Shown here: positions 1 to 44,295 of the stretch, one piece after another
How positions within the stretch are numbered: the stretch's first letter is position 1
Layout of the letters: each line of letters starts with the position of its first letter
Virus genome (UHGV): UHGV-0091795
DNA length: 44,295 nucleotides
From: a virus
Direction: 5' to 3' (one strand)
Notes under the pieces: generated by a model
Databases searched by the model: none
Seen by the model: the letters and a program-made list of their open reading frames with translations, nothing else
What the model was told of the DNA's origin: nothing
Program-made: the position numbers and the translations under genes

Positions 1-550
1 TAATTCAAAGCATTACCCCATCAACACTGCGCTCACACGTCCCACCACATCAAAACATGTAAGGCCTTGCAAGCCATTGCGAGGCCTTAGGTGTCTCAGT
101 TTTGTCCCACCTTTTATTACGACTTCCATAGCCAATGAAGATAAACGTGACGACAAACGGCGCAGCAGTCTTCTTTCCCTTCACACTTTTCCCACCCAGC
201 ATGCATACCTTCTACCATAACTGTAGTGAATGTGTTATGAACGAGATGCGGACATTGGCAGCCTCAACAACATGACTGGCATTGAGGCGTATTAATCAGT
301 GGGGAGCAGGTCACGCCATCTATAATGGAAAACGTGCTGGTGACCTGCCGATACTCAGTCTCAGGCAGCGAATACAATTACACATAGTTGGAAAAATATG
401 TTAGCGCAACCAGTGATATCCGCGGCTTTCTCTGGAAAAATGTGTTAGTTTCTCTAAGCCATGTCCATTGCTAAAATAGGTATTCTTTTATTCTGTAAAA
501 ATCGGATATTTTCTCAAGCGCTGATGTAGGAATAGTTTTTTTGTTTATAC

Positions 551-862
551 TCAAACCTGTTTGTGTTTTTTTAGTTCTGCGATAATGTATTCATCATCAA
601 TATAATCCTCTCTCTCTCCAATGAAGTTTATTATGAATTCTTTTGCTTTTAAAGCTTTTGTGATGTGATATTTTTCATTGAATAGAATATACACTTTGAA
701 AATAGAATTGATGTGCTCATTAAAAATCGGCATTATTGGGAAAGATTCATCCATCTGTGTCAGGTCAGTCTTTACCCGACGCCCCCACTTCGAAAATCCA
801 CGAATCAATTCATCTCTCATGAAATATACGATTAACTCTACAATTAATTTTCTGTTAATCAA
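551..862 (-). CDS. hypothetical protein (AT-rich small ORF)
   Basis: 103-aa ORF in AT-rich DNA upstream of the GmrSD-like gene; no motif recognised. Confidence 0.3.
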   Translation of the reverse strand: MINRKLIVELIVYFMRDELIRGFSKWGRRVKTDLTQMDESFPIMPIFNEHINSIFKVYILFNEKYHITKALKAKEFIINFIGEREDYIDDEYIIAELKKHKQV

Positions 863-1447
863 TATGGAACCCTAAAAGAGCACACTTGATCTGTATCATA
901 TCGGCTTAAGTCGCCAAGAATAGCCCCATCTTAATCAATATAATAAGTTTTTTATTCCCCTCTGATCCTGCATACCACCAATGTCCGTTCCTGGCACTTA
1001 GCAGCCCTAGAGACAGTGGCGTAAAGTCATGGAGGAGCGGTGGGAGGAGGTGCAAATCCTCTCATACAAAAAATACGTAAAATCGATAACGGCTTGACAT
1101 AATTCAATACTAGCACTATCGGAAGTTCACCAGCCAGTCGCAGCTGACTATTGTATACGACATGTCTGCAGCTTCAATACCCGATAGTGCCATCTACAAT
1201 GATTTAGCAGCGCTTGGATAAAAAAACAGCAGCAACAGTGTGCTAACAATCTCGACAAAACACCGACGCAATGGAGAACAGACAAAAGAGAATATCCAAT
1301 GAAGCCGTAGCACGTCAGCATTCAAAAGCGGGATTTCTCGTTTTTACTTCACCAGCAACAAATACACTGTATCATGACTACATAAAAATGATTATTCTGA
1401 CTCAGATGAATTTCTTACTCTTGTGGAATGTCACTTATAGGTAAACA

Positions 1448-3337
1448 ATGAAATCCGAAACGCTAACCATCCAGCAACTTTTCCAAAATCAACGACAATA
1501 TCGTGTTCCATTCTATCAACGTGCCTACGTATGGACGCAACAAAACCAATGGTCAGCTTTGCTGGAGGATATCTTCGAAAAAGCACATAGCCGACTTTTG
1601 GGAACAAAACCAACTCCCCATTTCCTTGGCGCGGTGGTGCTGGAACCTCAACTCAAAAACAGCTTGTTAGGTGTAGATACCATACATATTATTGACGGCC
1701 AGCAACGTTTAACCACTCTTCAATATATTCTGGCATCCATTCGATTATCATTGCGTGCTACAGGCCTTTCTGATTTGGAAGGGTTAGTATTGACTTGCTT
1801 GAAAAATACAAACGAAGCAACTATGCGAAATAAAAAGGTAGAATGCTTCAAACTGTGGCCAACTTTTCGAGACCAAACTCATTTTATTCAAAGTTTTAAT
1901 GTTGAAAACATTGACGATCTCCGTGATGTATTTTCTGATAGCTTCACGCAACATGGTACGTTACGTAAACATTTCAACCACCCGCCGTCACTAGAGGCAT
2001 TATGGTTTTTTACTGAAGCCTTTATAAAATGGATTAAAATAGAAAAGTACTCACCACATGAAAATGCTGTAGCACTAATTGAGGCTGTCTTGACGGATCT
2101 GAAACTGGTAAGCATATTTCTCGAAGCTGAAGATGATGCCCAAATAATTTTTGAAACATTAAATGGCCGAGGGGCGGAACTTCATGCCACGGATCTTATT
2201 CGCAACTACATCTTTATGTGCGCTGAGCATGAAAATATTAATGCTATTGAATTATATGAAAATGAGTGGAAGAGCTTTGAAGATACATACTGGTCGGAAA
2301 GGCAACGCCGTGGACGTATTAATAAACCACGCATGGAGTGGCTAGTGCATGCGACATTGCAATCAGAAAGGCAACGTGAAATTGATCTGTCTCGTCTTTA
2401 CAATGAGTATCGTGATTATGTAAGTAAGGACTTGCCTTCACAACGAGCTGATCTGCAAGTAAAGCGCCTCAAACAATATGCATCACAATATAAAGAATTG
2501 GTTGGTGGTTTTGGCACAACCCCCATCTCACACTTTGGACATCGCATCGCAGCCTATGATGTGACGACACTTTATCCGCTTGCTTTGTTCATTTCGATAG
2601 CTAACATCGCCGATGGTGAGAAAGCAGCCATGTATAATGATCTTGTCTCCTACGTAGTACGAAGAGCCGTATGTGGCCTGACGCCAAAGAATTACAACAA
2701 TGTATTTATGAATGTATTGCGGCACTTGTCTAAAACGGAAATTTCCAGTGTTGAGTTACGTAATATCCTCAATAGCTTAAATGGCGAAGCCTCACGTTGG
2801 CCTGGTGACTCAGAATTTCTCAATGCTTGCATCAATGCTCCACTTTATCCTGGCAGGCTCGACGCACCGAAAATGCGCTCAATGTTAACGGAACTTGAAA
2901 GAGAACTTTGTCGCCAAGTGAAGACAGAGAAGCCTGATGTTCCAAATCTTTCCAATCTCGATATCGATCATCTTATGCCTCAAAGTTGGTATTCCTGTTG
3001 GCCTCTCGAAAATGGTCATATGGTGACAAATTCAGATGCAACGGTATTGAACCAAATTGTTCTGTCTGGAACAGATCTTACCCCTGAACAGCTACTGGTA
3101 AGGAAACGGCAACAAGCGATAGCTACGTTGGGAAATCTAACTTTGCTTAACCTTAGCGTAAACCGTTCTGTTCAGAATGCTGTATTTCTGAAAAAACGTG
3201 ATGCTCTCATCGTCCACACCAATCTACGACTGAACATACCACTTATACTTAAGGATAAATGGGATGAAGGTGAAATCCTGGAGCGGGGTAAAAAGTTGGG
3301 GGAAATTGCATTGAAAGTATGGCCAAAACACAATTAA
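1448..3337 (+). CDS. GmrSD-like type IV (modification-dependent) restriction endonuclease, DUF262 N-terminus + DUF1524 C-terminus
   Basis: 629-aa ORF. N-terminus has YQRAYVW and the DGQQR(LTT) signature of DUF262/ParB-like NTPase domains; C-terminus has DIDHLMPQSW, a His-Me finger (DUF1524-like) motif. Confidence 0.7.
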   Translation: MKSETLTIQQLFQNQRQYRVPFYQRAYVWTQQNQWSALLEDIFEKAHSRLLGTKPTPHFLGAVVLEPQLKNSLLGVDTIHIIDGQQRLTTLQYILASIRLSLRATGLSDLEGLVLTCLKNTNEATMRNKKVECFKLWPTFRDQTHFIQSFNVENIDDLRDVFSDSFTQHGTLRKHFNHPPSLEALWFFTEAFIKWIKIEKYSPHENAVALIEAVLTDLKLVSIFLEAEDDAQIIFETLNGRGAELHATDLIRNYIFMCAEHENINAIELYENEWKSFEDTYWSERQRRGRINKPRMEWLVHATLQSERQREIDLSRLYNEYRDYVSKDLPSQRADLQVKRLKQYASQYKELVGGFGTTPISHFGHRIAAYDVTTLYPLALFISIANIADGEKAAMYNDLVSYVVRRAVCGLTPKNYNNVFMNVLRHLSKTEISSVELRNILNSLNGEASRWPGDSEFLNACINAPLYPGRLDAPKMRSMLTELERELCRQVKTEKPDVPNLSNLDIDHLMPQSWYSCWPLENGHMVTNSDATVLNQIVLSGTDLTPEQLLVRKRQQAIATLGNLTLLNLSVNRSVQNAVFLKKRDALIVHTNLRLNIPLILKDKWDEGEILERGKKLGEIALKVWPKHN

Positions 3338-3361
3338 TGCAATTAATAAAATGATTATAGC

Positions 3362-3381
3362 GGCCTTACATTAGTAAGGCC
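3362..3381. terminator. hairpin between the convergent GmrSD-like gene and the invertase remnant
   Basis: Inverted repeat ggccttac-atta-gtaaggcc; no clean T-tract, so function is uncertain. Confidence 0.3.
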
Positions 3382-3562
3382 ACAACTCACTATTAAATCC
3401 TTTAATTTGCATCAAGAACAGCAGTGTCAGCCCTAGGCTCTCGGACTTTGTACCGCTTATCTTATCTTCAAAAATCAGCTCGCATCCTGCACAGTTCAGC
3501 GCATTACGTTGTAGATCTGTGTTCTGGTCATTTGTTGACACACGTACATAGCCAATAAGCAT
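3371..3562 (-). pseudogene. pin: truncated Din-family serine DNA invertase (Pin/Gin/Hin-like)
   Basis: N-terminus MLIGYVRVSTNDQNTDLQRNAL is near-identical to Pin/Gin/Hin including the catalytic Ser region. The ORF diverges after about 45 residues and stops after about 63 codons; intact invertases are about 185-190 aa. Its 3' end abuts the GmrSD-like gene. Confidence 0.75.
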
Positions 3563-3588
3563 GGTAGATCTCCCTGACAAAAGCAGGA

Positions 3589-4131
3589 ATGATGCCATTT
3601 GCTCGTTATTTCTGCATTTTCATAAATGTTGGTTTGGGAGAAGGCTCTGCATTACCGGTTGGGGTGCCTGTTCCGTGGCCTTCAGCCACTCCGCCAACAG
3701 GCTGGCTGAAATGCAACGGTGCCGCTTTTTCTGCTGAAGAATACCCGGAACTGGCAAAGGCTTATCCGACAAATAAATTGCCTGATTTACGTGGTGAGTT
3801 TATTCGTGGCTGGGATGACGGGCGTGGTATTGATGCTGTACGTGCCTTGCTAAGTCTTCAGAATGGAGGAGTGGAATCACACACCCACCAAGGGCAGCTC
3901 TTCAGAGTTAGTGATTATCGTACAAAAGAAATACCAGCATCAGAAGTTATGGGAAGAGGATATATTGCAAGCCTGACGCCGGGTGCTGATAGCCCACTTG
4001 ATTTTGATGATTATTCTGTATCTTCTAATCCAAATGGATATTTTGTCGGGAATCAGAGAACAACAGCATATGGGATAAATGAAACCCGTCCACGGAATAT
4101 TGCATTTAACTATATCGTGAGGGCTGCATAA
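3589..4131 (+). CDS. alternative tail-fibre C-terminal (receptor-binding) segment inside the invertible region
   Basis: Contains PVGVPVPWPSATPPTGWLKCNGAAFSAEEYPELAKAYP, typical of Mu S/P2 H/e14 Stf C-termini. It lies opposite the expressed tail-fibre gene and shares the GLGE junction at the crossover site. Confidence 0.6.
   Translation: MMPFARYFCIFINVGLGEGSALPVGVPVPWPSATPPTGWLKCNGAAFSAEEYPELAKAYPTNKLPDLRGEFIRGWDDGRGIDAVRALLSLQNGGVESHTHQGQLFRVSDYRTKEIPASEVMGRGYIASLTPGADSPLDFDDYSVSSNPNGYFVGNQRTTAYGINETRPRNIAFNYIVRAA
3624..3643. repeat. hix/gix-like inversion crossover site (invertase-proximal copy)
   Basis: aaatgttggtttgggagaag is an inverted copy (18/20 identical) of 5489-5508, about 56 bp upstream of the pin start. 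Confidence 0.6.
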
Positions 4132-4733
4132 TGGATAACGCTGTATTAAATAGCGAGTTTATTGCTACAAAGGCGGGGAATATTACCGTCTATAACTATG
4201 ATGGCGAAACACGGGAATATATTTCCACATCAACTGAATATCTTGCCGTTGGTGTCGGTATCCCTGCATATTCCTGTTTAGATGCCCCTGGCACATACAA
4301 AGCTGGTTATGCAATCTGCCGATCTGTAGATTTTAACTCATGGGAATATGTGCCAGACCATCGCGGTGAAATCGTCTTTAGCACCGAAACAGGAGAATCA
4401 AAAGAAATCACAGTTCCGGGTGATTACCCTGATAATACAACCACTATCGCCCCTTTATCTCCATACGATAAATGGGATGGTGAGAAATGGGTGACCGATA
4501 CTGAGGCACAGCATAGCGCCGCAGTAGACGCGGCAGAAGCACAGCGCCAGTCACTGATTGATGCTGCAATGGCTTCCATCAGTCTGATTCAGCTGAAATT
4601 AAAGGCCGGACGGAAACTGACGCAGGCAGAAACAACCCAGCTTAACGCTGTGCTGGATTACATTGACGCGGTGACGGCAACAGATACCAGCACCGCGCCG
4701 AATGTCATCTGGCCTGAACTGCCGGAGGCGTAG
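4131..4733 (+). CDS. tail-fibre assembly protein (alternative copy, Tfa/U'-like)
   Basis: 200-aa ORF immediately after the alternative fibre segment; its 3' end overlaps the convergent minus-strand tfa gene, as in Mu G-segment and e14 P-segment layouts. Confidence 0.65.
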   Translation: MDNAVLNSEFIATKAGNITVYNYDGETREYISTSTEYLAVGVGIPAYSCLDAPGTYKAGYAICRSVDFNSWEYVPDHRGEIVFSTETGESKEITVPGDYPDNTTTIAPLSPYDKWDGEKWVTDTEAQHSAAVDAAEAQRQSLIDAAMASISLIQLKLKAGRKLTQAETTQLNAVLDYIDAVTATDTSTAPNVIWPELPEA

Positions 4734-5166
4734 GCCATTCAATATCTGGAGCACTGGAGGGATCAACCAGCTCCAGTGCGTCCAGATAATCCAGCCACAA
4801 ATTATATTGTGCCAGTTCCTCACCTTTCAGACGACCGATAGCTGCTTTACCAGGCCATTGCTTACCGTTCATGTATTCGTTGGCATGGTCAATTCTCGAC
4901 TTTTTCTCTGAGTCAGCCGCAGCAAGTTGTTCTTTATGCGTAGGTGACGGAAGATCTACCCAGCAAGGCAACCCATCATCACCAATGCCACGCATTTTAC
5001 CCTCAGGAGCGTTTCCCATGAAAACCAGTGCATCTTCAGCATTTATATTGATGCCGTCTGACGGCCATGTGCCAGCAGTTAAATAATCATATTTCAGTGC
5101 CACAAGATAAAAAGCATTTTCCGTCGGGCTGAATACATAGTCGACCATTAATATCCTACTCCCCAT
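4705..5166 (-). CDS. tail-fibre assembly protein (Tfa/U-like)
   Basis: 153-aa ORF directly downstream of the tail-fibre gene; C-terminal region resembles the plus-strand copy ([20 protein letters not shown] versus [23 protein letters not shown]). Confidence 0.65.
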
Positions 5167-5792
5167 ACTGCCACTGTTGAATTAGATTTCGTGTATGCGC
5201 AAGCGGCTTTGAATTTGACCCGGTCAACAATCGCTGCGCTAACAAAAGGGGCTCCATTAGTCGCGTAGATCACAGAATTGACCAGCGAAGGATTGATGGA
5301 AAGGCAAGCATTAGGAAAGGCAACCGGCCATGAGTCATCAACAACGACCATATTACCGTCGGTAGATTGCGGCACTGATAGCGTCTTCCACTGAAGCAAT
5401 GCTGTTCGTTGTACTCCACCAATTAATACTGGAATAGTGATGTTACCTGCACTGCTGGCTAATGCTGTCGCAGCAGGCATTTTCGCTGCTTCTCCCAAAC
5501 CAAGGTTTTCGAGAGCCGTTTTCACCGTGCCATCCGATTTGATATCGCCAAACGGATTCTTGCGGCTTAACAGCAGCGCACGAAGCGCGGTAAGCAGCTG
5601 GTCATGCCGCCCCTTCTCCAGGCTGGCACCGGAGGCCTCCACCACGCTGCAAAGCTCCTCCTGCAACATGTCAAAGTAGTCATCATCCAGATCGGTGGCA
5701 GGTGTGCCGGTCTGGGGGTTACCACGGGTAAAACCGTTCTTACCCGCGCCGAACTTATCCTTCTGCGCGGTTTTCGTGTCTATACGATGCAT
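5148..5792 (-). CDS. tail-fibre protein (constant N-terminus + currently expressed variable C-terminus)
   Basis: 214-aa ORF following the baseplate genes; the crossover site lies inside the gene at about codon 95 ([10 protein letters not shown]). Confidence 0.65.
5489..5508. repeat. hix/gix-like inversion crossover site (inside the tail-fibre gene)
   Basis: cttctcccaaaccaaggttt contains the palindromic core aaaccaaggtttt resembling Hin/Gin recombination sites; inverted copy of 3624-3643. Confidence 0.6.
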
Positions 5793-5795
5793 GGA

Positions 5796-6380
5796 TTACT
5801 CCGGATATTTAAAAATTATGTAGGTATGCGACGGGCAGAGTTTGTTAAGCACACACTCGACAACGGTGTCGCCCCAGATACGCAGTGCGGAATCACAGGG
5901 ATCGCCACATGTCATCCAGGTGGTGTTGGTGTCGGCTGGCATGTTGATCTGCCAGTAATACCGCCATTCCGGCGCATTCACCGCGTCAGTACAGGCCGAT
6001 GAGCAGGTGAACGTGCTTTTGTCGTATCGCGTGATGGTGGCATCTGGTCTGCCCAGGGCAGCAAGCTGTGCAAGATAAAAATCCTCGTTGATGCCGCCCG
6101 CCAGGTTAACCTTCGCATCCAGCCGTTGCTGACGCTGGCGAAGGGTCTGCGTTACCGCCGGAATACATTCATCCGGCAGACCGCACAGACGCTCCCAGCG
6201 GTTTATCAGTTCAGTGGTGGTGCGCGGATCCAGCTCCCGCATCAGGGCATCCGCACGCTGATGAACGCGGGTTAATGACGGTGCTGCACCGGCAATCGCC
6301 GGATCGCTGGCTGACCACGCCGGACCAGGGGGCAACAGTGCCGACAACAGACGGATGTAATCATCGTTTGTCACGTCCAT
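5796..6380 (-). CDS. phage tail protein (Mu gp48-like, DUF2313/YmfQ-like)
   Basis: 194-aa ORF between the baseplate J-like gene and the tail fibre, in the Mu-like gene order. Confidence 0.5.
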
Positions 6381-7429
6381 GAAATCGTCCCCAGAACCGC
6401 CAGTTCATTTTTCGCAATGGAGATATTGTCCGCCGGGGCAAGCAACTGATGGCTGTATTCCCCGTTCGCACCGGAAATCGCTTCACTGATACGTGACACC
6501 TTCAGTTCTCCCTGCGGATAACCATCACGCAGCAGGAACGAACGCAACTCGGCGGTGATGGCAGCCCGTATTTCCGGTGTGTCCGGCGTCACGCGGATAT
6601 GAAAATCCACTTTATGCGCCACCGGCCTGAATACATACAAATCAGAGCCTGCCACCGGGGCCAGTGGCTCGATATGTTGTCTTGCCGACGTTTCCGTTGA
6701 CTCTTCCGGAATGGGATTAATCAGGTCACTGCTGGCAATCATCACACCGACAGTCCCCGTTCCCATCCAGTGTCGGTATATCCATGCGCGGGTAATGCCG
6801 GGCACTTCTTTAGCCCAGACGACATAGTCCCCGTCAGCCCCGCCCTGAGGCGTCCAGTAATACCGCTCAATGACGCGGGCGCGCCACGTTTCCAGATCTT
6901 CAGCATCAAATCCGCCTGTCAGGGTGTCAGCCACACCGGAAGACGGCAGACCATTCACCGGCGTGACCAGGATTAATGCCGTACCGTCGTCAGTGTTACC
7001 GACCGCGCCTGCATTTGAGCAGGCGATCGGCACACGCAGGACACCACCGGAGCTGGTTGCATCGGCAGTTGCCGTGTACTGAACCAGGTCATCGCGCTGA
7101 ATCACGCTCCCGGCAGTCACCTTCAGGCCATCGCTGACACCTTCCCAGCGCATATACCCGCTGGCAGCCGTGGCCCCCTTGCGCGGACACCGTTTCATCG
7201 CAGCATGTCGCGCCAGCCAGGACTCATCGCACAGGTCAGGCAGCATGTTCATTGCCAGATAATCGATGTACCCGTAAACCGTATGCAGCGCCGCCGCATA
7301 CACCTTTGCCCGCACGTCTTCATCCATGCGCCGGAGCGTGTCGCTGACGTCCAGCCTGGCGAATAAATCGTTACGGAGCATACTGATATTTTCTGCCAGC
7401 GTCGGGCGCTGAAATTCACTGTCCGCCAT
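6371..7429 (-). CDS. baseplate J-like protein (Mu gp47-like)
   Basis: 352-aa ORF in a conserved position within the Mu-like baseplate block; overlapping start/stop coupling with neighbours. Confidence 0.55.
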
Positions 7430-7844
7430 GCGTTATCGCACTCCACAGATCATCAAAAGAAATCATTACCGGTCCGTCACGACGCCAGAGAGTGATACTG
7501 TTACCCAGTTCATTAATCCCGGTGCGGCGGATATCCAGATCAATACGGGACACCACGCCATCATCAATCATCCATTGCAGGCATTCGCGGATATACCCCC
7601 TTACCGTCTGCACCAGCTGATTGGTCAGTTTGCTGCGCTGAAGCAGCCACAGTCGGGAGCCGTAACGGTCATTCTGTACCGCAGGCCAGGTATCCCCCCA
7701 CCATCCCATCGGGACGTCGGCGTTGTCATCAGGCTCCGCCCGCCGCCAGGTAAACAGGGAAATCACCACGGAGCGGGTCAGCGGATCCAGCGGTGCGCTG
7801 GCGCAGGTGCGTTTACCGTTCACCGTCAGCCACAGTTCCATCAT
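7416..7844 (-). CDS. baseplate protein (Mu gp46-like)
   Basis: 142-aa ORF, translationally coupled within the baseplate operon. Confidence 0.5.
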   Translation of the reverse strand: MMELWLTVNGKRTCASAPLDPLTRSVVISLFTWRRAEPDDNADVPMGWWGDTWPAVQNDRYGSRLWLLQRSKLTNQLVQTVRGYIRECLQWMIDDGVVSRIDLDIRRTGINELGNSITLWRRDGPVMISFDDLWSAITHGGQ

Positions 7845-8389
7845 GCCTCCATCGCTTTATCCGGTTTGTCGGTGTTACTGCCCTGACCGTTCTCTCTGTG
7901 ACGATGCCCGTTATAGGCAAGCCGCATCGCTGACATGGTGGTGCCGCCGGAGTCGCACAGGTCTTTCACCTGTCCTGTCACTTCCAGGTCCATTTCAAAA
8001 CGTGCTTCAGGTGCATTGCGAAACGTGATCGTTTTACCTGCACCGTCCACCACGATCCCCTCCCGGGTCAGCGTCACAGACTGCCCCTGATCGTCATAGA
8101 CAGCCACCTCACCCGTCTGCAGCCCTTTCAGGCGGTAGCGCCGGTCCGACACCGTAACAACCACCGCATGAGAACGGTCGCCATCCGGAAACAACACCAC
8201 CGCTTCCGCACCGCTGTTTGCCCTTGCGGTAAAACCGTAGGGTTCAAGATGTTCAACCCCGGCTTTGGGTTCACCGGCAATCAGGGACACATCCACGGTC
8301 TGACATTTCGTGGCGGCACTGATGCTTTTCACCACTGCCCGCCCAATCAGGCCGAGAAGTTGTCGCTGCATGGCTTCAATCGTCCTCAT
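7841..8389 (-). CDS. baseplate assembly protein V-like (Mu gp45-like spike)
   Basis: 182-aa ORF in the conserved position; glycine-rich beta-strand-like composition. Confidence 0.5.
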   Translation of the reverse strand: MRTIEAMQRQLLGLIGRAVVKSISAATKCQTVDVSLIAGEPKAGVEHLEPYGFTARANSGAEAVVLFPDGDRSHAVVVTVSDRRYRLKGLQTGEVAVYDDQGQSVTLTREGIVVDGAGKTITFRNAPEARFEMDLEVTGQVKDLCDSGGTTMSAMRLAYNGHRHRENGQGSNTDKPDKAMEA

Positions 8390-10841: not shown

Positions 10842-10865
10842 AGACTGACCTCAAAAAGGACTGCG

Positions 10866-15184: not shown

Positions 15185-15192
15185 GAGGATCC

Positions 15193-35669: not shown

Positions 35670-35755
35670 AATTCCTCCCGCAATGAGTGTGTTACGATTT
35701 GCACCTGAAAGTCGGTTCTGTTCGCGCAGACCGGCTTTCGCCATTTCTGAACCTG

Positions 35756-36295: not shown

Positions 36296-36325
36296 AGTAA
36301 TTGCCTTATCAGTTAACGCCGCAGA

Positions 36326-36559
36326 TTAGGCGGCAGAATTACTCGCGTTAAACAATGGTGCGAGGTCGGGACGAATATCTGCTGGTTTAATCTTTCCACC
36401 AGTGGCTGAGACAATTTTCATTACATAGCGGGCATCAATTCCGCCACCGTGTAGCCAACGCCAAACAGTGGGTTGGGCTACACCGCATAGATCTGCCAGT
36501 CGTTTTTGACTACCTGTAATACTGATTGCGAGTTGAATGGTCTGATTTGTCATCATCAA
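36326..36559 (-). CDS. cro: Cro-like HTH repressor
   Basis: 77-aa ORF with HTH (QKRLADLCGVAQPTVWRWLHG), divergent from cI, with an RBS-like aggaa upstream. Confidence 0.7.
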   Translation of the reverse strand: MMMTNQTIQLAISITGSQKRLADLCGVAQPTVWRWLHGGGIDARYVMKIVSATGGKIKPADIRPDLAPLFNASNSAA

Positions 36560-36584
36560 TTCCTATTGGTATTGCAACGAATAG

Positions 36585-36613
36585 ATAATAGCAATGCGTA
36601 TTAAACCAAGCAA
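36585..36613 (-). promoter_or_regulatory. pR-like promoter for cro
   Basis: On the minus strand: -35 TTGCTT, 17-nt spacer, -10 TATTAT, about 25 nt upstream of the cro ATG; overlaps ATAGCAAT-type motifs. Confidence 0.5.
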
Positions 36614-36627
36614 TAGCAAAACGTGTT

Positions 36628-36656
36628 TTGACCATCAATACGCAAGCGTATAAATT
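36628..36656 (+). promoter_or_regulatory. pRM-like promoter for cI (near-leaderless transcript)
   Basis: -35 TTGACC (36628-36633) with a TATAAAT-like -10 at about 36649-36656, only a few nt before the cI ATG at 36664. Confidence 0.4.
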
Positions 36657-36663
36657 AAAACTT

Positions 36664-37356
36664 ATGAAAAAAGAAACTCTTGCTGATCGCTTAAACCTAG
36701 CGATGGAACAATCTGGAATGTCTCAAGGCGCTCTTGCAAAGGCGTCTGGCGTAGCTCAACCCACAATCTGGAGACTGACAAGCGGCAACGCGCGCGGCTC
36801 AACAAAAATTGTTGAAATAGCTAATGCATTGGGTGTTCGAACAGAGTGGCTTTCATCAGGCATAGGCCCGATGAGAAATGACGGTCAACAATCAGGAAAG
36901 CCTGCTGTCAACCATTCCAAATACTTCAAGATTGACGTTCTTGATATAGAAGTCAGTGCTGGGCCGGGTGTCATCAACCGTGAGTTTGTAGAAGTCCTAC
37001 GCTCGGTTGAGTACTCGTTTGACGATGCTCGTCACATGTTCGATGGCAGGAAGGCAGAAAATATCCGCATCATTAACGTACGCGGTGACAGCATGTCAGG
37101 AACGATCGAACCAGGTGATCTGCTGTTCGTTGATATCACTGTTAAATCTTTCGACGGTGATGGTATCTATGCGTTTCTGTACGACGACACTGCCCATGTA
37201 AAGCGCCTGCAAATGATGAAGGATAAGCTGCTGGTTATCTCTGATAACAAGAGCTACTCACCGTGGGATCCGATCGAGAAAGACGAGATGAACCGAGTGT
37301 TCATCTTTGGGAAAGTTATTGGGAGTATGCCTCAGACATATAGGAAGCATGGTTAA
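36664..37356 (+). CDS. cI: CI-like repressor (HTH + S24 LexA-like autopeptidase domain)
   Basis: N-terminal HTH (MSQGALAKASGVAQPTIWRL) and C-terminal S24 motifs (VRGDSMSGTIEPGDLLFVD, HVKRL Ser/Lys dyad). Confidence 0.8.
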   Translation: MKKETLADRLNLAMEQSGMSQGALAKASGVAQPTIWRLTSGNARGSTKIVEIANALGVRTEWLSSGIGPMRNDGQQSGKPAVNHSKYFKIDVLDIEVSAGPGVINREFVEVLRSVEYSFDDARHMFDGRKAENIRIINVRGDSMSGTIEPGDLLFVDITVKSFDGDGIYAFLYDDTAHVKRLQMMKDKLLVISDNKSYSPWDPIEKDEMNRVFIFGKVIGSMPQTYRKHG

Positions 37357-37478
37357 AGTGAGGCTAAAAAACAGTTACAGCAATAGGCCTGTTGTTTTTC
37401 TTTAAACACGCAGTGTTAAACCGCTCTTTGAGATGCGGAGTAATGAGATGGAAGACTTGAATCACATAAGGGTTAGTG

Positions 37479-38228
37479 ATGGAGTGCGTAGCGAGCAGCA
37501 ATAGTGCAATACCTAATGTCGTTGAGGTAATACGTCGCATCAATGAAGGTTCCACTCAGCCATTTCTTTGCAAATGTGATGATGGGCAGTTGTATGTTTT
37601 GAAGTCAAAACCATCAATGCCCCCGAAAAATCTCTTAGCTGAGTTCATTTCGGCGTGTTTGGCTAATGATATCGGCCTTCCTTTACCTGACTTTAAAATC
37701 GTATTTGTGCCAGAGGAACTTATAGAGTACTCACCTGATCTGCAGCAACAAATTTGTACAGGATATGCCTTTGCTTCATTGTTCATTGACGGTGCAATAG
37801 CGTTAACGTTTACGCAGTCAAGAAACGAAACGATCATCCCAGTCGAACAGCAAAAATTAATCTATGTTTTTGATAAATGGATATTAAATGCAGACAGAAC
37901 GCTTACTGACAAAGGTGGAAACGTTAACATCCTTTATGACATCAGTAACGATAAGTATTATCTGATTGACCATAATCTCTCATTTGATCAGAATGCTGGA
38001 CCTGAAGATTTTTCTGTGCACGTGTACGGCCCTGGTAACCGCAAATGGCAATATGATTTAGTGGATCGCGTAGAGTACCGCCAGAGGGTCGTTAACAGTT
38101 TACACAAGCTTCCTGCTATCCTTGACGAAATTCCAGAAGAGTGGATAGTAGATGAGGAGTTTTTACCTTTTGTCTGCACTACGCTAGACAAAGGTGATTG
38201 TGATGAATTTTGGAGCGCAATAGAATGA
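37479..38228 (+). CDS. kinase-like protein (tentative HipA/PI3K-like catalytic core), first gene of the immunity-region cassette
   Basis: 249-aa ORF directly downstream of cI on the same strand; contains YYLIDHNLSFD, reminiscent of catalytic loops of HipA/PI3K-like atypical kinases. Family assignment is tentative. Confidence 0.45.
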   Translation: MECVASSNSAIPNVVEVIRRINEGSTQPFLCKCDDGQLYVLKSKPSMPPKNLLAEFISACLANDIGLPLPDFKIVFVPEELIEYSPDLQQQICTGYAFASLFIDGAIALTFTQSRNETIIPVEQQKLIYVFDKWILNADRTLTDKGGNVNILYDISNDKYYLIDHNLSFDQNAGPEDFSVHVYGPGNRKWQYDLVDRVEYRQRVVNSLHKLPAILDEIPEEWIVDEEFLPFVCTTLDKGDCDEFWSAIE

Positions 38229-39052
38229 CAACTCCATGCCTATATAGCATCGTTCGCTATGCGCCTTATGCGGAGACTGAAGAGTTCGCAAACATAGGCG
38301 TACTTCTGTGCGCGCCAAAAGAAAATTACTTTGATTTCCAGCTCACAAAGCGAAATGACTCTCGTGTAAAGAATTTTTTCCATGATGATTGTATTTTCCC
38401 TGTAGCAAAAGACTCAATACAAAGAGAACTACAGTTCGCAAAAATGCATGCGACCCAGATTGTTGGACATCAACAACTTGCACAATTCTTCAGATATTTT
38501 ACAAACAAAAAAGAATCAATTTTTCAGTTCAGTTCTACGAGAGTGATTCTCAGCGAAAACCCAAAAGAAGAGCTGGCCCGCATTTACAATAAATATGTAA
38601 ACCACTCTGACTACACAAAAGAGCGCCGTGAAGATGTTCTAGCCAGAGAGCTAAAACGAAGTATCGATAGAATAGATGGATTGAAGAACGTCTTCAAACA
38701 AGCAACCATTGATGGGTATTTCGCAAAGTTCTCAATGCCATTGGTCGCCAAGAAGCATGACAGGATCCAATGTGCCATCAAACCTCTGGCATTCACTCAA
38801 GCTGAACCAGGAAAAATGATGGAGCATAGTGATACTTGGGTGATGAGAATAACTCGAGCAGCAGAAGAAAACCTGCTTTCACTTGATGACATTTTATTCA
38901 CAATTGAAACTCCTGAATCACCAAACTCAGGCCAAAGCAAAGTTATTGACATCATAAAGAGAACTATGGATGCTAAGAAAATAAATCATATACCTGCATC
39001 CAACCACAAAGAAACTATTGATTTTGCAAAAAAAATACTTCCCCAAGTTTAA
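38225..39052 (+). CDS. DUF3037-like protein, second gene of the immunity-region cassette
   Basis: ATG overlaps the upstream stop (ATGA). N-terminus LYSIVRYAPYAETEEFANIGVLL fits the DUF3037-type pattern (Y.I.RY.P....EEF.N.GV.L). Confidence 0.55.
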   Translation: MTTPCLYSIVRYAPYAETEEFANIGVLLCAPKENYFDFQLTKRNDSRVKNFFHDDCIFPVAKDSIQRELQFAKMHATQIVGHQQLAQFFRYFTNKKESIFQFSSTRVILSENPKEELARIYNKYVNHSDYTKERREDVLARELKRSIDRIDGLKNVFKQATIDGYFAKFSMPLVAKKHDRIQCAIKPLAFTQAEPGKMMEHSDTWVMRITRAAEENLLSLDDILFTIETPESPNSGQSKVIDIIKRTMDAKKINHIPASNHKETIDFAKKILPQV

Positions 39053-39087
39053 AATTTATTTTTGTATGTGATATTCCTTATTAATAA

Positions 39088-39114
39088 CCCGGCCACCGTG
39101 CCGGGTTTTCTTTT
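39088..39114 (+). terminator. intrinsic terminator ending the cI-cassette transcript
   Basis: cccggc-caccgt-gccggg hairpin followed by TTTTCTTTT, 36 bp after the DUF3037-like stop. Confidence 0.75.
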
Positions 39115-39254
39115 GCCTCCCCTCATCACACAAACCGCTCAAAAAACCACCACAACCCCGCTTCAGTTATCGCTATGCGATGCAAGTCACAAAATTAATT
39201 CTTTTTGCTATCAAACATTTAATATCAAAACACATCTAACGATAGCAATAAGTA

Positions 39255-39283
39255 TTGATATCACCAATAGCAATAGCTATTAT
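39255..39283 (+). promoter_or_regulatory. pL-like early-left promoter with overlapping operator motifs
   Basis: -35 TTGATA, 17-nt spacer, -10 TATTAT; ATAGCAAT motifs (39242-39249, 39266-39273) match motifs in the cI-cro intergenic region. Confidence 0.55.
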
Positions 39284-39388
39284 CACCATATCGCAACAAC
39301 ACAACGATACGGCAACCACCTGATTCACCGTTGCGATGACCGCTTAGATCCGCAGCTTGATTTCAGCAGGCTCCGGGGAGTGCGAGGG

Positions 39389-39592
39389 GTGAAACGGACG
39401 CGTGAACGTCGGTGTGACCAGCTGAAATCAACTCAACACTTCATACCTCAGTTGCTTCAACGAGGCGACTTAGTTATGACAACCGGCGGCCATCCACCGC
39501 CAAATACTGCGCAACCCCTTATTTGTTCAGCAGCCCAGCTTACGGGCAGGAGTTTTTATGGTTCATCAACATTACGGAACGCAGACCGTTAA
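39389..39592 (+). CDS. candidate N-like antiterminator (arginine-rich N-terminus, GTG start)
   Basis: 67-aa frame beginning GTG with a GGGGAG RBS 8 nt upstream; N-terminus MKRTRERRCDQLK resembles the arginine-rich motif of lambdoid N proteins. Highly tentative. Confidence 0.25.
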   Translation: MKRTRERRCDQLKSTQHFIPQLLQRGDLVMTTGGHPPPNTAQPLICSAAQLTGRSFYGSSTLRNADR

Positions 39593-39764
39593 TCGCGGTG
39601 CGGTCATGCCAGGAATGCTGGTCAAACACAAAGATGGTACCTGGACTGCATCAGCTAATTTACGCGGACGGCTTTATCTGCATCGCGGCATCGAGCGCAC
39701 TTATACCCGTGATTTGCTCGTGGAAGTTTTTCTCGACGGACGCGGTAACGGCCTGAATCACTAA
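39558..39764 (+). CDS. small hypothetical protein in the kil/cIII position
   Basis: 68-aa ORF with an aggag RBS 7 nt before the ATG, immediately upstream of gam. Confidence 0.4.
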   Translation: MVHQHYGTQTVNRGAVMPGMLVKHKDGTWTASANLRGRLYLHRGIERTYTRDLLVEVFLDGRGNGLNH

Positions 39765-39840
39765 CCCCCCTTTCCTGTTTTCCTAATCAGCCTGGCATTT
39801 CGCGGGCGATATTTTCACAGCCATTTTCAGGAGTTCAGCC

Positions 39841-40137
39841 ATGAACGCTTATTACATTCAGGATCGTCTTGAGGCTCAGAGCTGGGCGCGTCACTACCAG
39901 CAGATCGCCCGTGAAGAGAAAGAGGCAGAACTGGCAAACGACATGGAAAAAGGCCTGCCCCAGCACCTGTTTGAATCGCTATGCATCGATCATTTGCAAC
40001 GCCACGGGGCCAGCAAAAAAGCCATTACCCGTGCGTTTGATGACGATGTTGAGTTTCAGGAGCGCATGGCAGAACACATCCGGTACATGGTTGAAACCAT
40101 TGCTCACCACCAGGTTGATATTGATTCAGAGGTATAA
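39841..40137 (+). CDS. gam: Gam (RecBCD inhibitor), short form
   Basis: 98-aa [59 protein letters not shown]..., near-identical to lambda Gam. Confidence 0.9.
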
Positions 40138-40142
40138 AACGG

Positions 40143-40928
40143 ATGAGTACAGCACTCGCAACGCTGGCAGGGAAGCTGGCTGAACGTGTCGGCATGGATT
40201 CTGTCGACCCACAGGAACTGATCACCACTCTTCGCCAGACGGCATTTAAAGGTGATGCCAGCGATGCGCAGTTCATCGCATTGTTGATCGTCGCCAACCA
40301 GTACGGCCTTAATCCGTGGACGAAAGAAATTTACGCCTTCCCTGATAAGCAGAACGGCATCGTTCCGGTGGTGGGCGTTGATGGCTGGTCCCGCATCATC
40401 AATGAAAACCAGCAGTTTGATGGCATGGACTTTGAGCAGGACAATGAATCCTGTACATGCCGGATTTACCGCAAGGACCGTAATCATCCGATCTGCGTTA
40501 CCGAATGGATGGATGAATGCCGCCGCGAACCATTCAAAACTCGCGAAGGCAGAGAAATCACGGGGCCGTGGCAGTCGCATCCCAAACGGATGTTACGGCA
40601 TAAAGCCATGATTCAGTGTGCCCGTCTGGCCTTCGGATTTGCTGGTATCTATGACAAGGATGAAGCCGAGCGCATTGTCGAAAATACTGCATACACTGCA
40701 GAACGTCAGCCAGAACGCGACATCACTCCGGTTAACGATGAAACCATGCAGGAGATTAACACTCTGCTGATCTCCCTGGATAAAACATGGGATGACGACT
40801 TATTGCCGCTCTGTTCCCAGATATTTCGCCGCGACATTCGCGCATCGTCAGAACTGACACAGGCCGAAGCAGTGAAAGCTCTTGGATTCCTGAAACAGAA
40901 AGCCACTGAGCAGAAGGTGGCAGCATGA
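40143..40928 (+). CDS. bet: Bet (Red-beta single-strand annealing protein)
   Basis: 261-aa [62 protein letters not shown]..., near-identical to lambda Bet. Confidence 0.9.
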
Positions 40929-41605
40929 CACCGGACATTATCCTGCAGCGTACCGGGATCGACGTGAGAGCTGTCGAACAGGGGGATGATGCATGGCACA
41001 AATTACGGCTCGGCGTCATCACCGCTTCAGAAGTTCACAACGTGATAGCAAAGCCCCGATCAGGAAAGAAGTGGCCTGACATGAAAATGTCCTACTTCCA
41101 CACCCTGCTGGCTGAGGTTTGCACCGGTGTGGCTCCGGAAGTTAACGCTAAAGCGCTGGCCTGGGGAAAACAGTACGAGAACGACGCCAGAACCCTGTTT
41201 GAGTTCACTTCCGGCGTAAATGTTATTGAATCCCCGATCATCTATCGCGACGAAAGTATGCGCACCGCCTGCTCTCCCGATGGTTTATGCAGTGACGGCA
41301 ATGGCCTTGAGCTGAAATGCCCGTTTACCTCCCGGGATTTCATGAAGTTCCGGCTCGGTGGTTTCGAGGCCATAAAGTCGGCTTACATGGCCCAGGTGCA
41401 GTACAGCATGTGGGTGACGCGAAAAGATGCCTGGTACTTTGCCAACTATGACCCGCGTATGAAGCGTGAAGGCCTGCATTATGTCGTGATTGAGCGGAAT
41501 GAAAAGTACATGGCGAATTTTGACGAGATGGTGCCGGAGTTCATCGAAAAAATGGACGTGGCACTGGCTGAAATTGGTTTTGTATTTGGGGAGCAATGGC
41601 GATGA
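40925..41605 (+). CDS. exo: Exo (Red-alpha 5'-3' exonuclease)
   Basis: 226-aa [47 protein letters not shown]..., near-identical to lambda Exo. Confidence 0.9.
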
Positions 41606-41784
41606 AGCATCCTCACGATAATATCCGGGTAGGCGCGATCACTTTCGTCTACTCCGTTACAAAGCGAGGCTGGGTATTTCCCGGCCTTCCTGTTATCCGA
41701 AATCCCCTGAAAGCACAGCGGCTGGCTGAGGAGATAAATAATAAACGGGGGGCTGTATGCACAAAGCATCTCCTGTTGAGTTAA
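41596..41784 (+). CDS. small hypothetical early protein
   Basis: 62-aa ORF overlapping the exo stop (ATGA-type coupling). Confidence 0.4.
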
Positions 41785-41948
41785 GAACGAGTATCGAGAT
41801 GGCACATAGCCTCGCTCAAATTGGAGTCAGGTTTGTGCCAATACCAGTAGAAACAGACGAAGAATTTCATACGTTAGCCACATCCCTTTCACAAAAGCTG
41901 GAAATGATGGTGGCGAAAGCAGAAGCAGATGAGAGAGACCAGGTATGA
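41757..41948 (+). CDS. small hypothetical early protein (lambda orf63-like)
   Basis: 63-aa acidic ORF ...[55 protein letters not shown], recalled as similar to a small lambda b-region ORF. Confidence 0.45.
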   Translation: MHKASPVELRTSIEMAHSLAQIGVRFVPIPVETDEEFHTLATSLSQKLEMMVAKAEADERDQV

Positions 41949-42024
41949 CAACCACTGAATGCATTTTTCTGGCAGCGGGCTTCATATTCTGTGTGCTTAT
42001 GCTTGCCGACATGGGGCTTGTTCA

Positions 42025-42240
42025 GTGACACCTCAGCAGGAAAACGCCCTTCGCAGCATTGCCCGTCAGGCTAATTCTGAAATCAAAAAAACCAGACAGC
42101 AGTTTCCGGATAAAAACGTCGATGACATTTGCCGTAGCGTACTGAAGAAGCACCGCGAAACGGTAACGCTGATGGGATTCACACCGACTCATTTAAGCCT
42201 GGCAATCGGCATGTTAAACGGCGTTTTTAAGGAACGGTGA
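42025..42240 (+). CDS. small hypothetical early protein
   Basis: In-frame GTG start (VTPQQENALRSIARQANSEIKK...); the upstream part of the longer six-frame ORF overlaps another frame. Confidence 0.3.
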   Translation: MTPQQENALRSIARQANSEIKKTRQQFPDKNVDDICRSVLKKHRETVTLMGFTPTHLSLAIGMLNGVFKER

Positions 42241-42338
42241 ACATGAAAAGCAAAATCATCAGGGAGCTACAGGCTCCTTTTTTATTATTCGCATTCACCC
42301 TCAAGCGTATTAACCAACAATTCAGGGATTAATGAAAG

Positions 42339-42557
42339 ATGGCAGACATCATTGATTCAGCATCAGAAATTGAAGAATTACAGCGCAACACAGCAATAAA
42401 AATGCGCCGCCTGAACCACCAGGCTATATCTGCCACTCATTGTTGTGAGTGTGGCGATCCGATAGATGAACGAAGACGCCTGGTCGTTCAGGGTTGTCGG
42501 ACTTGTGCAAGTTGTCAGGAGGAGATCGAACTTAAGAACAAACAATGGGGACTGTGA
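42339..42557 (+). CDS. TraR/DksA-family C4-type zinc-finger protein
   Basis: 72-aa ORF with CxxC...CxxC (CCECGDPIDERRRLVVQGCRTCASC), the TraR/DksA-like zinc finger common in lambdoid early-left regions. Confidence 0.7.
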   Translation: MADIIDSASEIEELQRNTAIKMRRLNHQAISATHCCECGDPIDERRRLVVQGCRTCASCQEEIELKNKQWGL

Positions 42558-42604
42558 TGGCCTCAAAGCAGCAAATTTCAACATCGTCCAACTGAGGTGT
42601 AAAA

Positions 42605-42883
42605 ATGTTCAGAATCATTTTTCCTAACACCTGGTACGTCGACCACCACGGCACTCCCTGCAAAATCCTGCGTTCTACCCACAACAAAGTTCACTACATC
42701 CGAAAAGGCAGAACATGTATCGCCAGCATGTTCCGCTTTAATCATGACTTTGAACCTGTGAATAAAGCTGATGCAGATCGGATAGCAGAAGAGATCGAAA
42801 CGGCAGAACACATTAAGAAGTTACGTGACATGCGTTCAAAAAGCAGAGGTAACCATGGAATCATACAGCCTCACACTCGATGA
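42605..42883 (+). CDS. hypothetical protein upstream of xis
   Basis: 92-aa ORF; unrecognised. Confidence 0.35.
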   Translation: MFRIIFPNTWYVDHHGTPCKILRSTHNKVHYIRKGRTCIASMFRFNHDFEPVNKADADRIAEEIETAEHIKKLRDMRSKSRGNHGIIQPHTR

Positions 42884-43205
42884 GGCCTGTCAGTTTCTCA
42901 AGATATCCAGACCTACCGCTACCAACTGGATACGAACAGGCCGCCTACAGGCAACACGCAAAGACCCCACTAAACTAAAATCTCCTTACCTCACAACACG
43001 ACAAGCCTGCATTGCGGCACTTCAGTCTCCGCTGCATACTGTCAAGGTGAGCGCGGGTGATGGCATAACAGAGGAAAGAAAATGTCACTCTTCCGCAGAA
43101 GTGAAATATGGTACGCCAGTTTCACATTGCCGAACGGTAAAAGATTTAAACAGTCTCTTGGAACAAAGGACAAAAGGCAGGCGACAGAGCTCCATGACAA
43201 GCTAA
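42855..43205 (+). CDS. xis: excisionase (P22 Xis-like)
   Basis: [38 protein letters not shown]... (winged-helix excisionase), overlapping the int start as in P22. Confidence 0.8.
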
Positions 43206-44245
43206 AGGCTGAAGCATGGCGGGTCAGCAAACTTGGTGAAATACCTGATATGACGTTCGAGGAAGCGTGTGTCAGGTGGCTTGAAGAGAAAGCACATAAA
43301 AAATCACTGGACGATGACAAAAGCCGGATCGGATTCTGGCTTCAACATTTCGCAGGGATGCAATTAAGAGACATTACTGAATCAAAAATTTATTCAGCAA
43401 TTCAGAAAATGACGAACCGGCGTCATGAGGAAAACTGGAAACTCAGGGCAGAAGCATGCAGAAAAAAAGGGAAACCTGTTCCAGAATACACGCCAAAACC
43501 AGCGTCCGTTGCAACGAAGGCAACGCATCTTTCATTTATAAAGGCCCTGCTAAGAGCCGCAGAGCGTGAATGGAAAATGCTGGATAAGGCACCAATTATT
43601 AAAGTGCCTCAACCAAAGAATAAACGGATCCGCTGGCTGGAGCCTCATGAAGCACAAAGGCTGATTGATGAATGTCCGGAGCCATTAAAGTCTGTTGTTG
43701 AATTTGCACTGGCAACAGGTTTAAGACGCTCAAACATCATCAACCTTGAATGGCAACAAATAGACATGCAGCGCCGGGTGGCATGGATAAACCCGGAAGA
43801 GAGTAAATCAAACCGCGCAATTGGCGTTGCGCTGAATGATACTGCATGTCGTGTATTGAAAAAACAAATCGGGAATCATCACCGTTGGGTATTTGTGTAC
43901 AAGGAAAGCTGTACCAAACCAGACGGAACGAAAGCGCCAACAGTAAGGAAGATGCGGTATGACGCAAACACAGCCTGGAAAGCGGCGCTGAGACGGGCTG
44001 GTATTGATGATTTCAGATTTCACGACTTGAGACACACCTGGGCAAGTTGGCTGGTTCAAGCCGGAGTCCCGTTGTCAGTGTTACAGGAAATGGGAGGCTG
44101 GGAGTCTATCGAAATGGTTCGTCGATATGCTCACCTTGCACCTAATCACCTTACCGAACACGCACGGCAAATAGACTCGATCCTGAACCCATCGGTCCCA
44201 AATTTGTCCCAGTCAAAAAATAAGGAAGGTACTAATGATGTGTAA
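43082..44245 (+). CDS. int: tyrosine integrase (P22 Int-like)
   Basis: 387-aa [50 protein letters not shown]... with catalytic region [15 protein letters not shown]...VRRYAHL; ends 14 bp before the tRNA 3' end. Confidence 0.9.
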
Positions 44246-44259
44246 CTTATTGATTTAAA

Positions 44260-44295
44260 TGGTGCCGATAATAGGAGTCGAACCTACGACCTTCG
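44260..44295 (-). tRNA. thrW: tRNA-Thr, 3' portion (gene continues beyond the window); phage attachment core
   Basis: The reverse complement reads cgaaggtcgtaggttcgactcctattatcggcacca, i.e. anticodon-stem/T-arm/acceptor 3' end with CCA, matching the tRNA-Thr used as the P22-type att site. Confidence 0.8.

Follow-up and report, generated by a model that had tools for sequence, protein, structure and literature searches.

UHGV-0091795 is a virus genome of 44,295 nucleotides, and the whole of this stretch, referred to here as the window, carries a prophage in which genes of several phage types stand side by side. It raises the question of whether such an element is falling into decay or is an integrated phage that is still whole. 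The original prediction, made from the letters of the window, favoured a mosaic of modules of different ancestry, showing decay and at the same time accumulating accessory genes. The 62 genes translated from the window were compared by tblastn with SfV, P22, lambda, HK97, Mu, e14, DLP12, SfI and three phages deposited as isolates (vB_EcoM-720R4, IdasGreatGrand and PhiR5_1), and the window itself was compared by megablast with 5,426 complete E. coli genomes. What emerges is an essentially complete SfI-like E. coli prophage with known defence and conversion morons at standard hot spots, an element which would have gone no further than a first step towards inactivation.

Lineage and completeness of the prophage

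The window is very probably one complete temperate phage genome of ~44.3 kb, belonging to the SfI/SfV/e14 lineage and integrated at the 3′ end of thrW. The phages of this lineage are myoviruses of lambdoid type, which combine an HK97-family head with a Mu-like tail and package their DNA by a cos/HNH system. Of the 62 window proteins, 42 are shared with SfI in conserved order (capsid 99.8%, integrase 99.5%, R 97% and S 87% identical). The DNA of the late module is 97.6% identical to the SfV/SfI type over 13144-22770 and 5480-10781, with proteins 96-100% identical, and the late genes follow the SfV/SfI order TerS-TerL-portal-protease-capsid-neck-sheath-tube-tape measure protein-N-P-gp45-48-fibre. 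The list of open reading frames (ORFs) and the base composition divide the window into two blocks, minus-strand genes of ~56% GC at 5.1-23.2 kb and a remainder of lower GC with divergent operons and interspersed AT-rich stretches. The published description of SfI has an SfV/e14 left part joined to a lambda right part, with insertion at thrW (PMC3636060). Every module assignment in the original prediction holds by tblastn or Pfam, but the combination is this known architecture; the mosaic is the standard published arrangement of the lineage and not an unusual joining of unrelated modules.

About 60 of the 62 genes are intact, with lengths equal to those in the isolate-deposited phages. The ORFs for tail, head, packaging, lysis (including Rz1), nin, replication, immunity, Red and int/xis functions are all open, and they match full-length genes of vB_EcoM-720R4, IdasGreatGrand, PhiR5_1 or SfI at 96-100% identity. 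Each structural gene is found at full length and 96-100% identity in vB_EcoM-720R4, and the early, nin and lysis genes are found at 96-100% identity in IdasGreatGrand and PhiR5_1.

The virion genes occupy the minus strand. The head, connector and packaging genes (15193-23197; Pfam and tblastn) encode neck proteins, an HK97-family capsid, an S78 protease, portal, YmfR, TerL, TerS and an HNH protein. All of these ORFs are intact and the capsid is 99.8% identical to that of SfI. Identity to the HK97 counterparts is 26-36% for capsid, protease, portal and TerL, and there are clear domain matches (Phage_capsid 266 bits, Peptidase_S78 109 bits, Phage_portal 361 bits, with the TerL domain also matched). 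Capsid, S78 protease and portal stand in the HK97 order with no separate scaffold gene, which bears out the HK97-like head that had been proposed. The contractile tail genes (5148-15184; tblastn) encode the fibre, homologues of gp48, gp47, gp46 and gp45, the P hub, N, the tape measure protein, an assembly protein, tube, sheath and a DUF2635 protein; the ORFs are intact and 98-100% identical to SfV and SfI. That the tail is Mu-like is equally correct, since eight proteins match Mu gp38, L, N, P and gp45-48 at 30-42% identity and in Mu order by tblastn; the tube and tape measure proteins had no match in Mu at E < 1e-3.

At its right end the window closes on the 3′ 36 nt of tRNA-Thr (thrW; 44260-44295, minus strand), the int-proximal attachment (att) core cut by the window end. 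This segment, recognised by its identity to thrW and the att core, is the reverse complement of the thrW 3′ end, is identical in Br_178, K-12 and the SfI/SfV/P22 core, and starts 14 nt beyond the integrase stop codon. ARAGORN and Rfam, at gathering thresholds, report no tRNA in the window, ARAGORN because the gene is truncated by the window end. Beside the core lie, on the plus strand, an excisionase and a tyrosine integrase of the SfV/P22 type (42855-44245; Pfam Phage_integrase and tblastn). The integrase (43082-44245) is 99.5% identical to that of SfI, 98% to SfV and 90% to P22, and the excisionase (42855-43205) 97, 95 and 89%, respectively. An int/xis pair of this type beside 36 nt of the 46-bp core is the arrangement of SfV/SfI integration at thrW, and the predicted P22-type int/xis at tRNA-Thr is thereby confirmed.

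As had also been foreseen, a second att copy was not found in the window: a search with the 36-nt segment, allowing up to three mismatches, returned the terminal copy only. Positions 1-109 form the phage arm adjoining that other copy and match SfV 20575-20467, the window end aligns to SfV 20602, and 26 nt of the circular map are absent. These matches of both ends to SfV mean that the window is the phage genome opened inside attP, with the 26 nt missing. The search further to the left that had been proposed as a check finds its target in a relative: in ET201 the full 46-bp core, TGGTGCCGATAATAGGAGTCGAACCTACGACCTTCGCATTACGAAT, ends 16 nt before the base equivalent to window position 1. It is the reverse complement of the core published for SfI, SfII, SfV, SfX and P22 (PMC3636060). 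The sister prophage of Br_178 has the same int-thrW end and a second att copy at its far end, next to gtrA. In the source genome the left copy would almost certainly lie a few bases to the left of the window. Beyond its att copy ET201 continues into a CP4-6-like island (ykfI, yafW), as in K-12, and the elements thus stand in tandem at thrW.

A few further observations concern this end of the prophage. The ET201 extract (L001, 1-12000 and 45527-46770) has the sister prophage next to the CP4-6-like island past the att copy, and its early end is disrupted by IS1 and joined to bamE, which implies a chromosomal rearrangement; many genes in the ET201 assembly are frameshifted. Two non-coding stretches by the att arm of the window (110-255 and 980-1173) resemble DNA from the att region of phage 21 (87%) and from the lambda b-region (80-82%; lambda 27323-27464 and 24160-24352), and appear to be leftovers of past arm exchanges.

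Prophage matches extend along the entire window in the complete E. coli genomes. The top match for the left half is ET201 (99.7% over 1-23197), and YZLc4-1 and Br_178 are among the top matches for the right half (97.9-98.9%). None of the 5,426 genomes singly covers at least 80% of both halves, as would be expected had an SfV-like and a lambda-like prophage been collapsed by the assembler at shared sequence. Such a chimera is nevertheless highly improbable. UTI89 spans 23190-24185, YZLc4-1 spans 24178-26303 and 27563-43357, and Br_178 spans 30171-44295, and the late/early/int arrangement at thrW is the same in Br_178 and SfI. The chimera was discarded because no junction lacks an independent genome that runs across it.

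Comparison with known phages places the window more closely. SfI (NC_027339), together with SfV, SfII and SfIV, is alike in gene order, in int/xis (97-99.5%), in the 46-bp att core in thrW, in the HK97-family head (capsid 99.8%) and the Mu-like tail (96-100%), in the lambda-type Red, P and ren genes and in S and R of the DLP12/phage-21 type. It differs in carrying gtr O-antigen genes where the window has the invertible fibre segment, a truncated pin gene and GmrSD. No gtrABC cluster was found in the window between the fibre genes and attP, whereas the sister prophage of Br_178 has gtr there; gtr defines the serotype-converting subgroup and not the virion lineage. The immunity region of the window is also Rac-like (CI/Cro/YdaT), HipAD takes the place of rexAB, N is absent, the nin region and Q are of the DLP12 type, the tape measure protein is different (24%), and with extra cargo and IS3 the window is ~6 kb longer. 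The cryptic prophage e14 of E. coli K-12 resembles the window in YmfQ (97%), YmfR (97%), TerL (99%, partial) and tfaE (90%), in having an inversion segment with pin, and in a type IV restriction gene placed directly past pin (mcrA in e14, GmrSD in the window). By contrast e14, at icd, has been reduced by deletion to a 15-kb remnant and has an intact pinE; in the window, at thrW, the prophage is of full length and pin is truncated. PhiR5_1, PhiR26_1, IdasGreatGrand and DLP12 share with it the early genes, nin, Q, the Q-to-S cargo (Blc, YbgA-like and AraC-like proteins) and HipAD at 96-100%, and PhiR26_1 also has PD-lambda-1 annotated. The first three, phages of natural E. coli isolates, differ in having lambda-type siphovirus virions and other integrases. 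The window joins a PhiR5_1/IdasGreatGrand-type early half to an SfV-type myovirus late half.

Lesions and the argument for decay

The lesions from which decay was argued are a truncated invertase, a frameshift in Q and an IS3 insertion. The truncated gene belongs to an invertible tail-fibre segment (3624-5508; inverted repeat I4, e14 TfaE 90%) flanked by 20-nt inverted crossover sites at 3624-3643 and 5489-5508, which are 90% complementary and share the core TTGGTTTGGGAGAAG. In the off orientation stand an alternative fibre tip and a 200-aa assembly protein (3589-4733, plus strand), and in the on orientation a 153-aa assembly protein and the active fibre tip (4705-5508, minus strand). The region is 85-94% identical to e14 pinE/stfE/tfaE, so that the e14-like invertible segment of the original prediction is real. 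It is built like the Mu G segment with Gin, and like the Pin, Cin and Hin systems, having two sets of fibre tip and assembly genes head to head, inverted crossover sites and an adjoining serine invertase gene. It differs from the Mu segment in that the invertase in cis is truncated after ~45 codons. This remnant (3427-3598, minus strand; Pfam Resolvase N-terminal) is a 75-codon ORF retaining the first ~45 pin codons and covering positions 2-52 of the 145 in the Resolvase profile, so that truncation was correctly called and no intact serine invertase adjoins the segment. It is 85% identical to e14 PinE, and DNA homology stops at 3427. The 3′ part of pin has been replaced by the GmrSD cassette, whose end coincides with the break. 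An identical pin/GmrSD junction occurs in 303 of the 5,426 genomes, and the truncation is therefore ancestral.

Loss of the invertase has not brought inversion to an end in related prophages. The half of the segment that the window shares with UTI89 lies in the opposite orientation in the window. UTI89 (extract L004, 459-2397) and IHE3034 (extract L018, 3517-5455), closely related strains with the same prophage and the same pin remnant, carry the 1.9-kb segment (99.9% identity) exactly inverted relative to each other, between flanks that are 100% identical, and in these sister prophages switching therefore continues after the truncation of pin. The junction predicted for the flipped form is present, over at least 80% of the query, in 39 genomes; the 12 matches listed are 100% identical. 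For the window's own fibre alleles together with the truncated invertase the flipped form was not found, the matches being confined to prophages whose pinE is intact. The invertases Gin, Pin, Cin and Hin classically substitute for one another, and inversion in the sister prophages is presumably catalysed in trans by another Pin-family enzyme. It is tentatively suggested, as a rather speculative extension, that the GmrSD insertion removed the fibre invertase and left a working switch, with host-range variation depending on a Pin-family invertase from another resident prophage. If true, this would be a cross-prophage dependency created by the insertion of a defence gene, in a module present in 303 of 5,426 genomes.

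The QuuD-type antiterminator gene Q (29699-30075, minus strand) is split. A 1-nt deletion relative to YZLc4-1 (99.8% identical), GGG to GG at ~29902, breaks the frame after about codon 58 of 125; both fragments match the 125-aa Q of IdasGreatGrand at 99-100% identity. Probing with 61 nt that bridge the deletion shows the extra G in all 2,944 other E. coli records, so that the predicted frameshift is present and also private to this sequence; it is therefore an error or else a mutation of very recent date. We lean slightly towards a real mutation, because the rest of the window is free of frameshifts, unlike the error-rich ET201 assembly. The deletion is the sole change that could disable the phage; if real, it would block late-gene antitermination, with a probable loss of Q function.

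The third lesion is a complete IS3 of 1259 bp (26304-27562, plus strand), delimited by breakpoints against YZLc4-1 and matched by NCBIfam transpos_IS3 (339 bits). Both orfA (26360-26668, 102 aa) and orfB (26665-27531, 288 aa) are intact and stand in -1 frames, the TGATC... terminal inverted repeats are visible at the ends, and the YZLc4-1 alignment breakpoints overlap by 3 bp, marking an AAA target duplication. The element is present as predicted and is intergenic, ~40 nt upstream of the gene for an AraC-like protein. Since it sits between Q/pR′ and S, it may be polar on late transcription. Other IS3-family copies are seen elsewhere in relatives, between the DUF4041 gene and ren in YZLc4-1 (extract L003, 14273-15501) and inside blc in EC98 (extract L017, 6511-7673), and the AT-rich cargo islands seem to be recurrent targets of insertion sequences.

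Two other readings of these lesions have to be weighed. It is nearly an even chance that the element is a defective prophage under domestication, locked in the chromosome by a real Q frameshift and IS3, and kept for its defence and conversion genes as its phage functions erode. A Q frame broken at codon 58 of 125, the 1.26 kb which IS3 adds on the path of late transcripts, a small ORF with a nonsense change, the independent IS3-family insertions in related prophages and the example of e14 as an endpoint of the lineage are all consistent with this. Erosion is difficult to reconcile, however, with some 60 other undamaged genes, which share 96-100% identity with genes of isolate-deposited phages, and a frameshift found in no other record has left no time for it; the loss of most of the invertase is ancestral and is not disabling, and the cargo is found in isolated phages too. 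That the window is instead a fully functional temperate phage, in which the Q frameshift is a sequencing or assembly error in a homopolymer and Q-modified polymerase reads through IS3, we regard as doubtful. The deletion does lie in a run of G and is unique among 2,944 records, all else is intact, and IdasGreatGrand has the same layout of cargo between Q and S, without the insertion sequence. Nevertheless a run of 3 nt is a weak context for error, no other frameshift occurs over ~44 kb, so that the assembly is not error-prone as that of ET201 is, and 44.3 kb exceeds the 43.5-kb maximum for this head type.

Several of these points also weigh against an essentially complete prophage. The Q frameshift, if real, makes the prophage defective as it stands. 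The distance from att to att is ~44.3 kb, or ~43.1 kb without IS3, and isolated phages with the same head type (SfV, SfI, SfIV, SfII and vB_EcoM-689R6) measure 37.1-43.5 kb; the window is longer than every one of them seen here and may exceed packaging capacity. The GmrSD cassette has no counterpart in 50,697 phage records, so that viable particles carrying it are hypothetical. Since neither the left att copy nor the remainder of thrW falls within the window, completeness at that end rests on relatives. An essentially complete prophage remains the preferred reading. The lesions listed in the original prediction are indeed present, but the decay drawn from them has weak support: some 60 of the 62 genes are undamaged, the Q change is private, IS3 is intergenic, the truncation of pin is old and sister strains still invert. 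Resting on one unverified private frameshift and an intergenic insertion sequence, "decay" is an overstatement. A CI-type, RecA-cleavable repressor would keep a prophage with such an intact backbone silent.

AT-rich cargo islands

Six AT-rich islands (33-41% GC, against 48-56% in the backbone) were found by composition, where at least four AT-rich cargo loci had been claimed. Islands 3, 4 and 6 occur in isolated phages at 98-100% identity, and island 5 in PhiR26_1 by annotation only. The accumulation of accessory genes is thus not seen as a process, four of the six islands being known from isolated phages at 96-100% identity (that of SNIPE by annotation only); the cargo is standard equipment of this phage pool and was not gathered during decay. 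These genes are morons placed where lambdoid phages commonly carry them, namely between fibre and att, between Rz and cos, between Q and S, between ren and nin, and downstream of cI. They would be expressed from the prophage and would serve the lysogen.

Three islands carry defence systems. Island 1 (110-3426, plus strand, 40.7% GC; Pfam and PADLOC) comprises GmrSD and an 89-aa ORF. GmrSD (1448-3337, 629 aa) is a predicted type IV restriction enzyme, in which a DUF262 domain with the DGQQR motif (residues 82-86) is combined with a DUF1524 His-Me nuclease with DIDH near the C-terminus; it matches Pfam GmrSD_N (118 bits) and GmrSD_C (67 bits) and, over its full length, PADLOC mREase_IV (1476 bits). 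The 89-aa ORF upstream of it (551-820, minus strand) is a hypothetical protein in the ET201 annotation and matches none of the families in the libraries searched. Island 5 (31992-33494, plus strand, 35.7% GC; PADLOC and Pfam) encodes SNIPE, or PD-lambda-1. It matches PADLOC PD-Lambda-1 (658 bits, positions 1-485 of 491) and Pfam DUF4041, T5orf172 and MUG113, and has the hydrophobic N-terminal helix (residues 5-23) and the catalytic Glu414, so that every SNIPE hallmark sought is in place. SNIPE is a membrane-anchored GIY-YIG nuclease which is reported to cut phage DNA during injection (bioRxiv 10.1101/2025.11.03.685801). Island 6 (37476-39052, plus strand, 41.4% GC; Pfam, PADLOC PDC-M66A/B) is a HipAD/DS-6 pair consisting of a HipA_2 kinase (37476-38228, Pfam 258 bits) and a DUF3037 partner (38225-39052, 85 bits), the genes overlapping by 4 nt. 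The pair lies downstream of cI, in the position of lambda rexAB, and is followed by a terminator (~39087-39114) and operator-like repeats. It is 100% identical to HipA/HipD as annotated in PhiR5_1. Defence by HipAD/DS-6 has been validated, kinase activity being required for protection (PMC13092281).

The other islands are more varied in content. Island 2 (23198-24167, 32.9% GC), at the bor/iss position, holds small unnamed ORFs and is found at 97.2% identity in 105 genomes. One of them (23918-24070, minus strand) has 50 codons against 74 in UTI89 (WP_001220676.1), owing to a nonsense change at 23920 (A, giving TAA, where UTI89 has G). On the plus strand, 23281-23739 holds ORFs of 62 and 94 codons, in the same layout as in UTI89; an A7 run (23453-23459) marks a +1 shift between the two, and one added A at this run would give a fused ORF of 146 aa. 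The 146-aa fused, 74-aa and 89-aa ORFs have no Pfam, PHROG or PADLOC match. Substitutions relative to UTI89 in island 2 are mostly non-synonymous, and the coding status of its small ORFs is putative; together with the 89-aa ORF by GmrSD they could be uncharacterised conversion or defence genes. Island 3 (25523-26263, minus strand, 33.6% GC) is an AraC-family regulator (Pfam HTH_18 and HTH_AraC), 98% identical in IdasGreatGrand, whose top NCBIfam match, YdeO, scores 127.7 bits, below the cut-off of 348. Island 4 (27563-29698, 40.2% GC; Pfam and NCBIfam) encodes a YbgA-like protein with 2-thiouracil desulfurase and DUF1722 domains (27867-28826, minus strand) and a Blc-like lipocalin (29019-29543, plus strand), both 99% identical in IdasGreatGrand, and a terminator scan places a terminator-like hairpin (29600-29577) directly downstream of Q.

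Early, nin and lysis modules, and what the prophage illustrates

The remaining modules are lambdoid. The rightward early operon (33743-36559, minus strand; tblastn to lambda, PHROG CII-like activator) encodes a Cro-like helix-turn-helix protein, a YdaT/CII-like protein, O, P and ren; identity to lambda is 97% for P, 91% for ren and 65% for O. Three 22-nt iterons (35202-35318; repeat family D1) lie inside O and are likely to be the replication origin. They have the palindromic core TTACCTGATTCRGGTAA and a spacing of 47-48 nt, wider than that of the lambda iterons. The CI-type repressor (36664-37356, plus strand; NCBIfam S24, UmuD and LexA) has an S24 (LexA-like) autocleavage domain, and operator-like ATAGCAAT repeats, found as k-mers common to both regions, flank its gene at ~36570-36630 and ~39200-39290. 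The leftward early operon (39558-42883, plus strand; tblastn) encodes kil, gam, bet, exo and homologues of orf60a/63/61 with a TraR/DksA-like and a DUF4222 protein; it is 93-99% identical to lambda, with gam, bet and exo at 97-99%, and 96-100% identical in IdasGreatGrand. The assignment of lambda Red and O/P/ren is accordingly sound. Between the left operators and kil (39052-39558) neither an N gene nor a put-like RNA was found: the 176-aa ORF there has no Pfam match, the region is without a credible Rfam match, and the fold of the 270-nt leader there is not significant (z-score -1.2). N is absent also from the isolated PhiR5_1 and IdasGreatGrand, so its lack is not a lesion. PADLOC reports no further defence genes among the remaining small early genes.

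The nin region (30161-31663, minus strand) is of the DLP12 type (95-98% identity), with ylcG, rusA, ybcO (DUF1364), ninE, ybcN and a ylcH-like gene, all intact, ylcG included. Lysis (24168-25335, minus strand; Pfam and DLP12 identity) is of the phage-21/DLP12 type, as had been recognised, and comprises pinholin S, a signal-anchor-release (SAR) endolysin R, Rz and an embedded Rz1. S, a class II holin, has 71 aa with a Met1/Met4 dual start (MKSM...) and matches Pfam "Bacteriophage P21 holin S" at 121 bits. R, of 165 aa, matches Pfam Phage_lysozyme and has a SAR-like Gly/Ala-rich N-terminus with the E35/D44/T50 triad; these features and the dual start of the holin correspond to the phage 21 motifs. 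EssD and RrrD of DLP12 are the 99% identical counterparts of S and R, Rz is matched by Pfam Phage_lysis, and the embedded Rz1 is intact and carries a lipobox.

The window counsels caution against inferring decay from lists of lesions, since one of those listed here is ancestral and bypassed, one is intergenic and one is private and unverified. It is mildly notable that a fibre invertase was lost to the insertion of a defence gene without ending inversion in sister prophages. Above all, the prophage offers a clean worked example of the five classical moron hot spots, three of them occupied by recently characterised defence systems (GmrSD, SNIPE and HipAD), in agreement with published work on the defence arsenals of E. 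coli prophages.

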